Virus record (IMG/VR): IMGVR_UViG_3300026549_000051
Span: 47,103-111,102 of that record
Reading direction: 5' to 3' (one strand)
DNA length: 64,000 nucleotides
Source of the DNA: a virus
Lineage: Duplodnaviria; Caudoviricetes
In this document: piece by piece, positions 1-64,000 of the stretch
Numbering within the stretch: the stretch's first letter is position 1
How the letters are laid out: the number at the start of each line of letters is the position of its first letter
Translations under genes and position numbers: made by a program
The notes under the pieces: generated by a model
Told to the model about the DNA's origin: nothing
Seen by the model: only the letters and a program-made list of their open reading frames with translations
The model's database searches: none

Positions 1-381
1 GCGGATATGGTTCTCAAGCACCTGCTTGCCATTACCGTAGCCACCGTTAGAACGGTTAAGTGTTTCCTCGAGGTTGCGGGAGTCAATGCCAGCAGCCTGT
101 TCTACCACCTTACGCACCATCCAGTCGGTCGAGTCGATAACTAGCGTATCGAACTGACGCTCCTTCGCATGGTACAAGTCGGCGAGGTCTTCGTAGAACT
201 TCTTTAAGTCTTGGTATTGCTTGGTGCGTTTGACGCCAAGGTAATTCAAGCCTCCCTCGAAGTCCATAAACAATGGATTCTTGAGCTTCGATGCCAGCGT
301 AGATTTGCCTACGCCGCTGAGACCATAGATCATTACCTTTGGTGCGGTCAATGTGACACCTTCAATAATGTCTAAACTCAT
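1..381 (-). CDS. Sak4-like / AAA_24 ATPase (phage recombinase), copy A, truncated by the window edge
   Basis: Translated by hand: MSLDIIEGVTLTAPKVMIYGLSGVGKST (Walker A)...TLVIDS (Walker B)...NRSNGGYGNGKQVLENHIR; clearly homologous to 56337-57050. Confidence 0.85.
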   Translation of the reverse strand, partial: MSLDIIEGVTLTAPKVMIYGLSGVGKSTLASKLKNPLFMDFEGGLNYLGVKRTKQYQDLKKFYEDLADLYHAKERQFDTLVIDSTDWMVRKVVEQAAGIDSRNLEETLNRSNGGYGNGKQVLENHIR

Positions 382-668
382 CCGAGTCCTTTCCAAATTG
401 TATTGTTATTATTTATAGTTTCCCCCTACCTTCATTTTACCATACATATTCGACCATGTGTATGGAGCAGATGGGCAATGGAACCAAGAACTTTTTGACA
501 AAAAGTTTATCAACTCACGAGGTACAAATGTGAATTTTTTGATGAAAAGTCTATGCGTAAAAGTGAAGGTAATACAACAAAGATTGTAAAAATACGCTAC
601 CCATCTGCCTCTAGTTTGTGAAGAACCACCACGCTCTTTAACGCCTGACATGGCACGAAGGCATTTGT

Positions 669-1037
669 TTAGTGGAAGAAGCCTTTTGGCTTCGTATTGT
701 CCGCGATAAGCGAGACCTTCTCGAGAATCTTGTTCAAGACCTCGATGACGATTTCAGCCTGAGCTTCCGTGAAATTGATTTCAAGTGGCGTGGTTACAGA
801 CTCGCTAATTGCCTCTGCAATTCTCTCCCCCTCGGTTTTACTAGAGGTGTTCTTTTGTAGGACAAAAGTTCGATATTCATCAAGGTCTTCTGCCTTCTTA
901 ATACGCCAGAATGTTGACTGGCTAATATTCATAGCTCGCTGGATCTCTCTGCCAGATAAGCCTGTGTCAATTAGTGTTTTGACTGCATTAAAACTATGCT
1001 CGTCAATTTTGCGATATTTACGAACCTTCTTGTTCAT
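669..1037 (-). CDS. HTH DNA-binding protein
   Basis: N-terminal LIDTGLSGREIQRAMNISQSTFWRIKK fits a helix-turn-helix; SD GGAG upstream. Confidence 0.6.
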   Translation of the reverse strand: MNKKVRKYRKIDEHSFNAVKTLIDTGLSGREIQRAMNISQSTFWRIKKAEDLDEYRTFVLQKNTSSKTEGERIAEAISESVTTPLEINFTEAQAEIVIEVLNKILEKVSLIADNTKPKGFFH

Positions 1038-1101
1038 TTGTTTTCTCCAATTAAATTAATATTACATTCACTTTTGTTTGTGTTGTTTTAAACATATCAC
1101 A

Positions 1102-1761
1102 CTATTTTCCTTCAGTCAATTCCTCCTCCAATTTCTTGCACCAGTTCTTCTCCGAGAAGTCTGACTTGCCTTTTAAACAGGCGTAGATGTCATCTTCGAT
1201 AGTTCCCACCGACTTTTGTCTTTTGTAGGCGTCTCGCTTCTGCTTGAGCCTAGCATTATGGCGGCACTCATCGCTACAATATTTTGTTGTACCACTTGGG
1301 ACAAATTCTTCGCCACAGAAACTGCAACGCGGATAATCGCCAGCTTTTATACGCTTATATGTTTTGGTGTACTTATAGCCATTATTTTTAAGCGACCTCC
1401 TATTTACCTCCCTTCTCCCATTAAGTCTACACTCGCTACTGCAATATGTATTATGTTTCTCATATGGAACAAATTTTTTTCCACAGAAACAACAGTAAGC
1501 TGTTCTTTTGACATACGGTGCTCTAATAGGCTCGTTATTTGCATGCCATTTCTTATGGCACTTCACGCAAAGCCAGGAAACTTCCAGAGGTTTATTATAA
1601 TCGTTATGGTGTGCTTCCACTTTCTCAGTAGAGCCACAGCATTCACACGGCATCTTAGCCATTGTCCCAGACTTAATCGCCTTACGGACTAATGAGTGAG
1701 CCCTGTGCTCAGCCCTGAACTTCATATATTGATCATGCGTTTTCTCTTGTTCTGTCTTCAT
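1102..1761 (-). CDS. HNH endonuclease with two CxxC...YCSxxCR zinc fingers, fused to a displaced helicase C-terminus
   Basis: CECCG...EAHHNDY...WLCVKCHKKWH HNH core; last 34 aa (GTIEDDIYACLKGKSDFSEKNW...) match the helicase tails. Confidence 0.8.
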   Translation of the reverse strand: MKTEQEKTHDQYMKFRAEHRAHSLVRKAIKSGTMAKMPCECCGSTEKVEAHHNDYNKPLEVSWLCVKCHKKWHANNEPIRAPYVKRTAYCCFCGKKFVPYEKHNTYCSSECRLNGRREVNRRSLKNNGYKYTKTYKRIKAGDYPRCSFCGEEFVPSGTTKYCSDECRHNARLKQKRDAYKRQKSVGTIEDDIYACLKGKSDFSEKNWCKKLEEELTEGK

Positions 1762-62598: not shown

Positions 62599-63034
62599 AG
62601 TTCCTCACTTCCCTCGGCGATTGTCGCCCTTAAATTTTCTTTAATCTTATATACCTCTGATGTTTCAGGTATGCTCGCAAGCATATCTAAGATGTCATAA
62701 CACGCTTCGGCATAGCCGTCTTGCCACCCTGAGTTATAACACTCCATATCTGTTTTACTGCTCATGCTCCAACTCCTTGCTTACATTACTAACAATATCT
62801 TGTTCAACATTTGTTAATGGCTTGTCGGCTTTTACCACCATTTTGCCATCACTACCTATCTCAATAATCATGCTTTCTTCTCCTTAAAAAACTCTTTGAA
62901 CTCTTCTAAGTGTTCTTCGATAAAGTCCATAGCATTGCTAAAAGTTGTGATGTCGTCTTCGCTATAATCTACTCTATCCCAAAACTTTTTCTCCAATGCC
63001 ACAAGGTCATTAAAAATCTGTGTGCCTACATCTT

Positions 63035-63253
63035 TCATGCTTCTTCTCCTATCAATTCAAAATCTTCATTCATCAGTTCCACCCCTAGCGACATAGCGAC
63101 ATCATGCCATGCCCACTCTTTGCCACTATTAAAATAATATTCATCTCTAAACTTACGCTTATCTCCTTTCTGCTTTTTAATCGTGTCGTTCAGGGCTTCT
63201 AACTCTGCCTTATATTTTCTGCGTATAATCTTAGCCAATTCACTCTGCTTCAT
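63035..63253 (-). CDS. Hypothetical protein (MKQSEL)
   Basis: Near-identical to 6880-7098. Confidence 0.75.
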   Translation of the reverse strand: MKQSELAKIIRRKYKAELEALNDTIKKQKGDKRKFRDEYYFNSGKEWAWHDVAMSLGVELMNEDFELIGEEA

Positions 63254-63575
63254 ATCTTAACCCTTTCTCTTTTAACTTATTCACACAGTCCCAACACAAA
63301 GCACAATAGTCTATACCCTCATCTTGCATTGCCTTGATAATTGCCTTGTCCCCCTCGTTGTCTTCGTCCCACTCAAAACTATCTACCCATAAGAAATCTT
63401 GTTCGCTCCACCCATACTCGCCACACCTATCACAAGTGTTAAAGCCAATAGGGAATAACACTTCATCATGCAATTCAATATCGTTCTCTTCACACTCTTT
63501 GCCCAACTCTTCTTTGCTAATACGGTAGTGTTGTGCTTGGTCTTGCAGTAAATCAATTTTCTCTTGTCTAGTCAT
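63240..63575 (-). CDS. Zinc-binding hypothetical protein (start MTRQEK)
   Basis: Homologue of 4963-5289. Confidence 0.7.
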   Translation of the reverse strand: MTRQEKIDLLQDQAQHYRISKEELGKECEENDIELHDEVLFPIGFNTCDRCGEYGWSEQDFLWVDSFEWDEDNEGDKAIIKAMQDEGIDYCALCWDCVNKLKEKGLRYEAE

Positions 63576-63747
63576 GTTCAACCTTTCTTGCTTTAATCTC
63601 CCAATAATCGCCATGGCTTCCGATATAGATAGCGTTCTTATCGTAATCAATATATAAGTCATCAACATCTGAACAATTAAATTGTTCTTGCTCATCATTA
63701 TCTGCTAACTTGTCGTATATCAACTCCATTAATTTATACTTGTCCAT
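63568..63747 (-). CDS. Hypothetical protein (MDKYKL, 59 aa, not in ORF track)
   Basis: N-terminus shared with 7085-7303. Confidence 0.6.
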   Translation of the reverse strand: MDKYKLMELIYDKLADNDEQEQFNCSDVDDLYIDYDKNAIYIGSHGDYWEIKARKVEHD

Positions 63748-64000
63748 TATTTTTCTCCCATAATTATCTTATTGATGATTGTTTCTAATTCATCACAGTT
63801 GTCAAAGTTGTATCCTTGTTCGCCGTCTGTGGTGTCATATAGTTTTTGCTGTTCATCAATATATTTTTCAATTGATGCTTTTATACGCGCCATACTTTTC
63901 AGCTCGCCAGCAATCATTCCTTCGTCGTAACCCTTCAAATACCATTCCTGCTTTTTTCGGTCTAACGCCGTTTCGCTAGAAGAGAAGAGTGGTGATAGTG
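63747..64000 (-). CDS. Hypothetical protein, probably 5'-truncated by the window edge
   Basis: Frame stays open from the window edge (..KKQEWYLKGYDEG..). Confidence 0.5.
   Translation of the reverse strand, partial: LSPLFSSSETALDRKKQEWYLKGYDEGMIAGELKSMARIKASIEKYIDEQQKLYDTTDGEQGYNFDNCDELETIINKIIMGEK

Follow-up and report, generated by a model that had tools for sequence, protein, structure and literature searches.

The DNA analysed here, hereafter the window, is the last 64 kb (64,000 nucleotides; record positions 47103-111102) of a 111,102-bp IMG/VR record, IMGVR_UViG_3300026549_000051, which IMG/VR rates as 100% complete and classes as linear. ORFs, family matches and, for the spacer, inspection of the sequence and its repeats divide the window into two minus-strand early/replication modules, at 1..8165 and 50878..64000, and the plus-strand genes that lie between them. 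An earlier note, made from the sequence alone, called the two modules copies A and B; we ascribe them to two proposed genomes, P and Q, respectively.

The early module of P, delineated by Pfam matches and ORFs, includes an HNH ORF (1102-1761, minus strand) and many small minus-strand ORFs, the last of them at 7896-8165. It is 73-92% identical to the related contig G1, which was also the sole IMG/VR relative found for a 179-aa gene. The spacer that follows (8166..11527) comprises AT-rich non-coding sequence (8170-9000), a group of five small ORFs on the minus strand, accompanied by GC-rich hairpins (9290-10802), and, ahead of the primase operon, a cluster of iterons of the form AAATATATGTC(A/T)AAA, present in both direct and inverted orientation (11127-11407). 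Sigma-70-like promoters on the minus strand are predicted around 7908 and 9930. A ~60-nt element present twice in the spacer has weak folding z-scores (-0.8 to -2.3). Rfam gave no match in window 7000-20000, and a blastn search with the "distant" setting gave no match between window 7000-13000 and a phage collection.

The plus-strand genes form two arms, which flank the second copy of a 293-nt exact repeat. We refer to the sequences on either side of this copy as B-left and B-right, and to those on either side of the first copy as A-left and A-right. B-left (11528..19154) begins with an 87-aa ORF and encodes a D5-like primase/NTPase (11766-13547; DUF5906 and PHROG DNA primase matches), a terminase large subunit-like protein (15811-17523; GpA_ATPase and PHROG terminase matches) and a 388-aa protein (17744-18910), with small ORFs between primase and terminase. 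The repeat (19155..19447, plus strand) lies inside a small gene, 19098-19472, whose 124-aa product has no family match. B-right (19448..50814), the structural, tail and lysis arm, encodes a MazG-like protein (19546-20001), a 737-aa protein, a tape measure of 2168 aa (25119-31625), an endolysin cassette (34914-36824), a fibre of 1253 aa (37967-41728), a BspA-type LRR protein (41725-42708) and an 823-aa protein (44755-47226). The early module of Q includes HNH endonucleases (53180-53923 and 55124-55756, minus strand). Its last gene (63747-63998, minus strand) is cut by the record end at window 64000, and no IMG/VR relatives were found for it.

The earlier note had reported nine genes present twice in the same orientation, with position 1 aligning near 56667. 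Both statements hold: window 1-150 corresponds to 56667-56816 at 76.7% nucleotide identity, and protein comparison recovers nine minus-strand pairs with 37-87.5% amino acid identity and E-values of 1e-12 to 1e-144, far past chance. They are an AAA_24/Sak4-like pair (1-396 and 56337-57068, 66%; the first copy is cut by the window start), an SF2 helicase pair (1733-2965 and 57345-58589, 50%), and pairs of the MKIVM (3726-4154 and 59115-59339, 44%), MAYWN (4724-4963 and 60581-60826, 63%), MTRQEK (4963-5289 and 63240-63698, 41%), MILFI (5882-6157 and 61046-61441, 37%), MNVEE (6157-6726 and 61353-61670, 59%), MKQSEL (6880-7122 and 63035-63253, 87.5%) and MDKYKL (7085-7303 and 63568-63747, 67% over 36 aa) types. 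The MTRQEK gene has indeed moved, occupying a different position in each copy, and many other early genes occur in one copy only. To call the MKQSEL copies nearly identical, as was done, overstates their 87.5% identity. Further nucleotide similarity is confined to patches: 4721-4977 and 60578-60840 (70%), 6410-6621 and 61459-61670 (69%), 6880-7118 and 63035-63274 (85.5%) and 7235-7303 and 63679-63747 (95.7%). As was correctly remarked, a terminal repeat or circular-assembly overlap would be identical; the early modules are 65-96% identical, and in patches only, which speaks against both.

The duplication is real, and larger than the early block first noticed. Self-comparison shows that the whole record is collinear with its own sequence at an offset of ~56 kb, from 2518<>59555 to 54405<>110849, so that the duplication extends to entire genomes. 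Whether the flanks hold a second terL set had been raised as a check; the full record contains, upstream of the window, a second primase, terminase, tape-measure, tail and lysis set. One 111,102-bp record thus holds two complete, diverged siphophage gene sets. They are not copies of one genome: P can be aligned to Q over only 33% of its length, with 73.8% identity, and the k-mer frequency of the record is 1.005-1.012, with repeated k-mers covering only 1-2% of positions, which argues against a same-genome concatemer. As expected, small early genes and homing endonucleases turn over between P and Q, and the lysis cassette changes position.

A tandem array was among the options of the earlier note. 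Two complete gene sets, head-to-tail on the same strand, could also be two related prophages arrayed in tandem at a single attachment site, or two pasted database records. We consider either very improbable. Six-frame searches with working controls detected no tyrosine integrase, resolvase or large serine recombinase (PF00589, PF00239, PF07508), no tRNA was found, no repeat of at least 14 nt links the record ends with the middle as att repeats would, and no host genes are present at the record ends or in the spacer. There were also no relatives among 185,579 species genomes. As for pasted records, the record contains no N run, and an independently assembled contig crosses the spacer.

That contig also bears on the position of the junction, which the earlier note had placed at 8-11 kb. 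The source run, assembled independently by Logan at k=31, yields one contig over window 7239-17291 with 0 differences, so a head-to-tail junction at 8-11 kb is not borne out. The order of early genes, spacer and primase is the same in two relatives: G1 matches as far as window 9125, where the contig ends, and in G2 a single contig links an early gene to the primase. The 8-11 kb region is native to P, and consists of an early promoter region, small genes and the iteron cluster upstream of the primase. The Logan contig rules out a switch point between 9125 and 11900, as first placed by the end points of G1. The contig begins exactly at 7239, where a branch node at k=31 is formed by a 40-nt exact word (7239-7278, identical to 63683-63722) within the part of the MDKYKL gene that codes for the N-terminus. 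This word was rejected as a chimeric join: a read is longer than the word, and G1 shows the same adjacency at this point. A simple figure-eight graph, with a k-1 overlap between the record ends and the middle, was likewise discarded, as they share no word of at least 14 nt except at homologous positions.

We wondered whether the pairings of the record might nonetheless be right, with a circular genome composed of A-left and A-right and another composed of B-left and B-right joined in the spacer between 7303 and 11500. The assembly graph does branch within the spacer, where a loose end joins other sequence to 8970 onward; G1 ends at the equivalent of window 9125; and the two laps have unrelated sequence ahead of the primase. 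However, the k=31 contig matches 7239-17291 throughout, and the loose end at 8970 represents a third strain, because its sequence is found nowhere in the entire record. Together with the read depths and relatives described below, this makes an arrangement with the record's own pairings improbable.

The true switch points are probably the two copies of the 293-nt repeat, at record 10497-10789 and window 19155-19447. The first copy lies outside the window, 36,313-36,605 bases upstream of its start, and the spacing of the two copies is 55,760 bp, roughly the length of one unit. The 293-mer is the only exact repeat of at least 83 nt between the laps (the next longest are 82, 78, 62 and 59 nt), and it is 100% identical between genomes that elsewhere share 73.8% identity. 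A 25-mer of the repeat had no match in the viral contig collection. Reads of the source run were taken as short because its k=31 contigs are long and exact. One unit-length segment is thus flanked by an exact repeat that exceeds the read length, the geometry expected if an assembler had looped one genome into another.

Depths in the Logan k=31 contigs of the source run, compared over window 1-20000, show how the arms pair. Window 1-6986 has a depth of 32.5, 7239-17291 of 42, 17443-18784 of ~40 and 18772-19091 of 36.5. The contig containing the repeat node (19062-19447) has a depth of 52.4, approximately the sum of the depths of both arms, and the 16,195-nt contig from 19418 onward has a depth of 21.9. 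A loose end at 19447 goes on into record 10790. Flow balance gives ~30-35 for A-right, in line with the measured 32.5, and an inferred ~16-20 for A-left, in line with the 21.9 of B-right; B-left therefore pairs with A-right (P), and A-left with B-right (Q). The near two-fold step from B-left (36-42) to B-right (21.9), exactly at the 293-mer, is hard to reconcile with the record's own pairings. Coverage steps had been named in the earlier note as a sign of an artefact, and two were found: one at ~7.0-7.2 kb (32.5 to 42), the other at 19.4 kb (~36-40 to 21.9), at the end of the 293-mer rather than at 8-11 kb. Depth along the proposed P is itself uneven (32.5 vs 42). Loose ends at 727, 7060, 8970, 14884 and 19690 correspond to further related strains in the sample, which may add to the depth along P.

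A single molecule would need equal arm depths and the repeat at twice the arm depth. This is pertinent to a biological alternative, in which co-infecting P and Q recombined at the shared 293 bp to give a real hetero-dimer, either a Campbell-type cointegrate or a hetero-concatemer formed during recombination-dependent replication. One homologous crossover would yield exactly the observed layout of unit P inside Q between direct copies of the crossover segment, both phages encode Sak4-like AAA_24 recombination ATPases, 100% identity over 293 nt against 73.8% elsewhere indicates recent exchange between the lineages, and the repeat-node depth of about P plus Q shows that the repeat is truly present in both genomes. 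The depths, however, are those of a loop and a path (32.5-42 for the loop, 21.9 for the path with the A-left part of it inferred, and 52.4 for the repeat): with arms at 32-42 and 22 and the repeat not at twice each arm, most molecules must be monomers. Independent contigs carry monomer pairings only, and short reads without read-pair support could not show a dimer across 293 nt. We therefore regard a hetero-dimer as an unlikely source of the record, if somewhat less so than the record-pairing arrangement. Of the earlier note's hetero-concatemer option, the sequence layout stands, being the same as that of a Campbell-type cointegrate, whereas depth and independent contigs oppose it. A minor fraction of cointegrate or hetero-concatemer molecules may occur in the sample. 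If the hetero-dimer were true, it would have been abundant enough for assembly, and the contig would be a direct snapshot of the intermediate by which tailed phages swap genome arms.

Relatives assembled from other samples span the repeat in the crossed pairings. Contig L041, part of a 59,902-bp SPAdes contig (ERZ808032), matches A-left at 88-90%, the repeat at 93.5% and B-right at 93.5-94%, and the other arms at 73-75%. Contig L042 matches B-left at 93.6%, the repeat at 99.3% and A-right at 96.8%, and the other arms at 74-75%. The crossed pairings are thus seen at 88-97% identity (90-97% as set against the record-pairing alternative), and the record's own pairing is seen in neither contig; coming from other samples, these contigs show that P-type and Q-type genomes exist, but not that the record's pairing is missing from the source sample. 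L042 has the A-type version of a 46-nt stretch just left of the repeat, which implies that its crossover base is not exactly that of P. A contig from run X2 over 19078-20000 has 6 gapped positions, which match a 6-nt indel of the A-type N-terminal stretch, and judging by this sequence is probably also A-left, repeat and B-right. G1 (54.8 kb) combines a B-like primase arm with an A-like remainder and the A-type endolysin position, and G2 (48 kb) combines an A-like primase arm with a B-like tail arm, its endolysin in the B-type position. P, Q, G1, G2, L041 and L042 therefore present the same arm types, combined differently, and single genes range from no detectable similarity to 95% identity. 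The short terminase relatives from IMG/VR (L010-L023) were left out of the arm typing as too diverged (66-77%), and 20 other runs with 20-31% of words were left out as evidence.

Taken together, the repeat geometry, the unequal depths, the unbroken contig over 7239-17291 and the crossed pairings that independent contigs carry, all directly observed, make it very likely that two real rumen siphophage genomes, co-occurring and mosaically related, were fused by assembly into one chimeric 111,102-bp record, with P looped inside Q. The earlier note's option of a chimeric or concatenated assembly is the one that these data support. P would correspond to record 10497-66256 (55,760 bp), covering window 1-19154 and one repeat copy, and Q, nearly complete, to record 1-10496 plus 66257-111102 (55,342 bp), within the window 19155-64000. 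P and Q account for all 111,102 bp, with a full gene set in each. P would be circular or circularly permuted in the assembly graph, and the exact 293-nt segment that it shares with Q would be longer than a short read. Q would then be a path through the repeat node and P a cycle through the same node, which an assembler, presumably of a paired-end de Bruijn type able to resolve simple loops, would have traversed from Q-left into the repeat, once round P, into the repeat again and out to Q-right. Window 19155-19447 would be the point where the assembler left P and re-entered Q, and the two early modules of the window would be that of P and that of Q. The record end words had no match in the viral contig collection, and no sequence was seen that closes Q from window 64000 to record 1.

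This is mainly a data-quality result: a public record rated 100% complete most likely combines two genomes in a single contig. Such records would mislead work on genome size, gene content or "jumbo" status. A duplicate-genome check by k-mer frequency would probably miss them, because the two laps are different phages; they could be detected by protein-level self-alignment or by internal exact repeats one unit length apart. The side-by-side comparison of two phages is still valid. The remaining biology is ordinary: two co-occurring ruminant-gut siphophages swap arms at a small conserved gene, of which 293 nt are 100% identical in this sample.

Mosaic, modular genomes are an established concept for tailed phages, and the recombined arm types of P, Q and their four relatives show nothing unusual in this respect. 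One crossover, as in Campbell-type cointegrates and phage concatemers formed by homologous recombination, is expected to yield a unit bordered on both sides by direct copies of the shared segment. A real cointegrate would give equal arm depths and read pairs supporting the record's pairings, whereas depth is unequal in the present case.

IMG/VR includes contigs more than 2x the expected length that were judged assembly artefacts (PMC8116208). The repeat contigs described there with CheckV as probable assembly artefacts resemble this record in being ~2x the expected length, with complete gene sets head-to-tail on one strand, and in coming from short-read metagenome assembly in the same database; they differ in that the same genome is repeated and k-mer frequency is raised above 1, whereas here the laps are different genomes and the value stays at 1.005-1.012. 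Also alike is the joining of two related viruses of one sample via a shared identical segment (2017, PMC5610896). There the usual event is a single switch from genome to genome, whereas here a whole circular genome is looped in, with both genomes nearly complete and in order.

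The earlier note had seen two diverged copies of one early module, and self-comparison of the window bears this out: positions 1-150 align with 56667-56816 at 76.7% identity, 6880-7118 with 63035-63274 at 85.5%, and 7235-7303 with 63679-63747 at 95.7%. The nine gene pairs that it named are all present on the minus strand, with amino-acid identities of 37-87.5%, and the MTRQEK gene does occupy different positions in the two copies. The window corresponds to bases 47103-111102 of the full record, which has 111,102 bp and is listed by IMG/VR as linear with a CheckV completeness of 100%. 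Self-comparison of the whole record shows same-strand collinearity between laps 55-59 kb apart, with paired positions running from 2518 and 59555 to 54405 and 110849. Both laps share one gene order: a D5-like primase comes first, then a terminase-like protein, a tape measure longer than 2,100 aa, tail and lysis genes, and finally an early module on the minus strand that includes a Sak4-like AAA_24 ATPase and an SF2 helicase. The record therefore contains two complete, diverged genomes rather than one genome with a repeated module.

When all exact words common to both laps were tabulated, a single outlier of 293 nt stood out (R; record 10497-10789, identical to record 66257-66549, window 19155-19447); after it the longest are 82, 78, 62 and 59 nt. 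R spans nearly the entire coding sequence of a small gene, with sharp divergence on either flank. Its two copies are 55,760 bp, or one unit length, apart, and the record can therefore be written as e1-R-e2-R-e3: e1 is record 1-10496, the first-lap arm left of R (A-left); e2 comprises the first-lap right arm (A-right), a spacer and the second-lap left arm (B-left, window 11528-19154); and e3 is the second-lap right arm (B-right). Such a layout could be a real dimer; alternatively, e2 plus R forms a circular genome, P, of 55,760 bp, and e1-R-e3 a second genome, Q, of 55,342 bp. Both readings predict identical local sequence.

Depths were taken from contigs of Logan, an independent k=31 assembly, for the probable source run; these contigs break exactly at shared words. 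A single molecule would have arms of equal depth and a repeat at twice that depth. The measured values depart from this: 32.5 over window 1-6986, 42 over 7239-17291, ~40 over 17443-18784, 36.5 over 18772-19091, 52.4 for the node at 19062-19447, and 21.9 for a 16,195-nt contig beginning at 19418. The repeat is about as deep as two genomes, one at ~33-40x and one at ~22x, added together. From flow balance at the node, A-right comes out at ~30-35, where its early module was measured at 32.5, and A-left, by inference, at ~16-20; on depth, then, B-left goes with A-right and A-left with B-right. The node depth of 52.4 also shows that the identical segment is truly carried by both genomes, and bubble collapsing was rejected as its origin. 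Source-run contigs match the record up to window 727, 7060, 8970, 14884 and 19690 and then diverge into sequence absent from the record and from two more distant unit-length relatives, G1 and G2, which shows that the source sample contains at least one further related strain.

Two close relatives turned up in other assemblies when public metagenome contigs were searched with a 25-mer from R. One, L041, which belongs to a SPAdes contig of 59,902 bp, runs from A-left (88-90% identity) through R (93.5%) to B-right (93.5-94%), and the other, L042, from B-left (93.6%) through R (99.3%) to A-right (96.8%). Identity to the opposite arm type is just 73-75%, and the record's own pairing is in neither contig. 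These pairings are the crossed ones predicted by P and Q. The 46-nt stretch immediately left of R in L042 is A-type, which places its crossover slightly further left than that in P. A contig of another run (X2) over window 19078-20000 has six gapped positions, which fit a 6-nt indel marking the A-type stretch left of R; on this match it is probably also Q-type. Arms are combined in the same ways in G1 and G2, endolysin cassette position and orientation included.

We consider it highly probable that the record is a chimera in which circular P was walked as a loop inside Q at R: where a path and a cycle meet in one repeat node, a paired-end assembler that resolves loops would write out path-loop-path. 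Window 1-19154 is then assigned to P and 19448-64000 to Q, with R (19155-19447) shared. The artefact considered in the earlier note is thus upheld, but its join moves from 8-11 kb to window 19.2-19.4 kb and record 10.5-10.8 kb. A real Campbell-type cointegrate would have the same layout and could exist as a minor species; as the source of the record it is unlikely, since depth and the independent contigs speak against it. We give almost no credence to a tandem prophage array or pasted records: a six-frame search returned no integrase or recombinase, no tRNA was found, no att-like repeat links the record ends with the middle, there are no relatives among 185,579 species genomes, and the record has no N run. 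A concatemer of a single genome was rejected because the k-mer frequency is 1.005-1.012.

The spacer (window 8166-11527), where the junction had been proposed, combines an AT-rich stretch and promoter-like sites with five small ORFs on the minus strand, and an iteron cluster lies directly before the primase operon. It is native, contiguous DNA on three counts: a 10,053-nt Logan contig from the probable source run spans window 7239-17291 with 0 differences; G1 (54,836 bp) matches the first early module of the window and continues to match in the spacer up to window 9125, and starts within a primase resembling that at window 11766; and G2 has an early gene, ~4.4 kb and a primase within one contig. 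Early genes, then spacer, then primase is thus how a circular or permuted unit genome is normally ordered. A chimeric join inside the spacer would need a near two-fold depth step within one genome, exactly at the 293-mer, and is very unlikely.

Window 11127-11407, directly upstream of the operon beginning with the D5-like primase, holds a cluster of AAATATATGTC(A/T)AAA words, direct and inverted, with a perfect 19-nt inverted pair (11151-11169 / 11324-11342), and is a candidate origin or operator region. An element of ~60 nt with ATCACTATCATC occurs twice in the spacer (9050-9110 and 10020-10080, 973 nt apart); it has no Rfam match and its folding z-scores are weak. The very first bases of the record hold a similar word, ATGATAGTGAT, in opposite orientation.

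R is 100% identical between P and Q, which elsewhere share 73.8% where they align at all. Identity of the segment is 99.3% in P-type L042, 93.5% in Q-type L041 and 73% in G1, and it is not detectable in G2; the gene carrying it (124 aa) has no family match. This pattern points to a recent event in this community, either a transfer or a gene conversion, that affected this small gene and probably went from the P lineage to Q.

Comparing early-gene turnover side by side, as the earlier note suggested, remains legitimate when P and Q are taken as two co-occurring phages, and the early-gene differences between them are ordinary mosaic phage biology. In three other samples (X2, X4 and X10), contigs join window 1216 to 1846, skipping 629 nt that contain most of an HNH-type ORF (1102-1761), whose last ~23 aa repeat the helicase C-terminus at 69.6% identity; close relatives thus differ in whether they have this endonuclease gene, as a homing element should. 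Several HNH or endonuclease VII-type genes scattered over non-homologous positions of the two genomes (window 53180-53923 and 55124-55756; record 4259-5029 and 35563-36123) are consistent with mobile endonuclease genes. The one at window 55124-55756 encodes a 210-aa protein with weak similarity (25% identity over 162 aa, E ~1e-3) to a protein in the other genome's primase arm.

A three-gene cassette (137 aa; a 396-aa Amidase_2 + PG_binding_1 endolysin; 79 aa) lies within the tail module of Q (window 34914-36824) and, inverted, after the tail and lysis genes of P (record 40322-42297). Its proteins are 56-90% identical between P and Q, and its placement is of the P type in G1 and the Q type in G2. 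Window 42067-42518 holds ~5.5 tandem copies of an 81-nt repeat (80-86% identical) within the coding region of a 327-aa protein (41725-42708) that matches BspA-type leucine-rich repeats (LRR_5) and is probably a variable host-binding protein; internal repeats are also present in a 1253-aa fibre (37967-41728).

Besides the probable source run, 23 runs contain 20-31% of the 31-mers sampled from window 6000-14000. The 24 runs come from 16 studies, cattle and sheep gut predominating, and the three other runs examined have pieces 90-99% identical on either side of the spacer. The phage group appears to be widespread in ruminants.

For IMG/VR contigs of >2x the expected length that hold repeated genomes, an assembly artefact has been considered probable, with k-mer frequency as the means of detection (PMC8116208). 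The present record is a hetero-genome variant of such contigs, one that this test would probably fail to flag.
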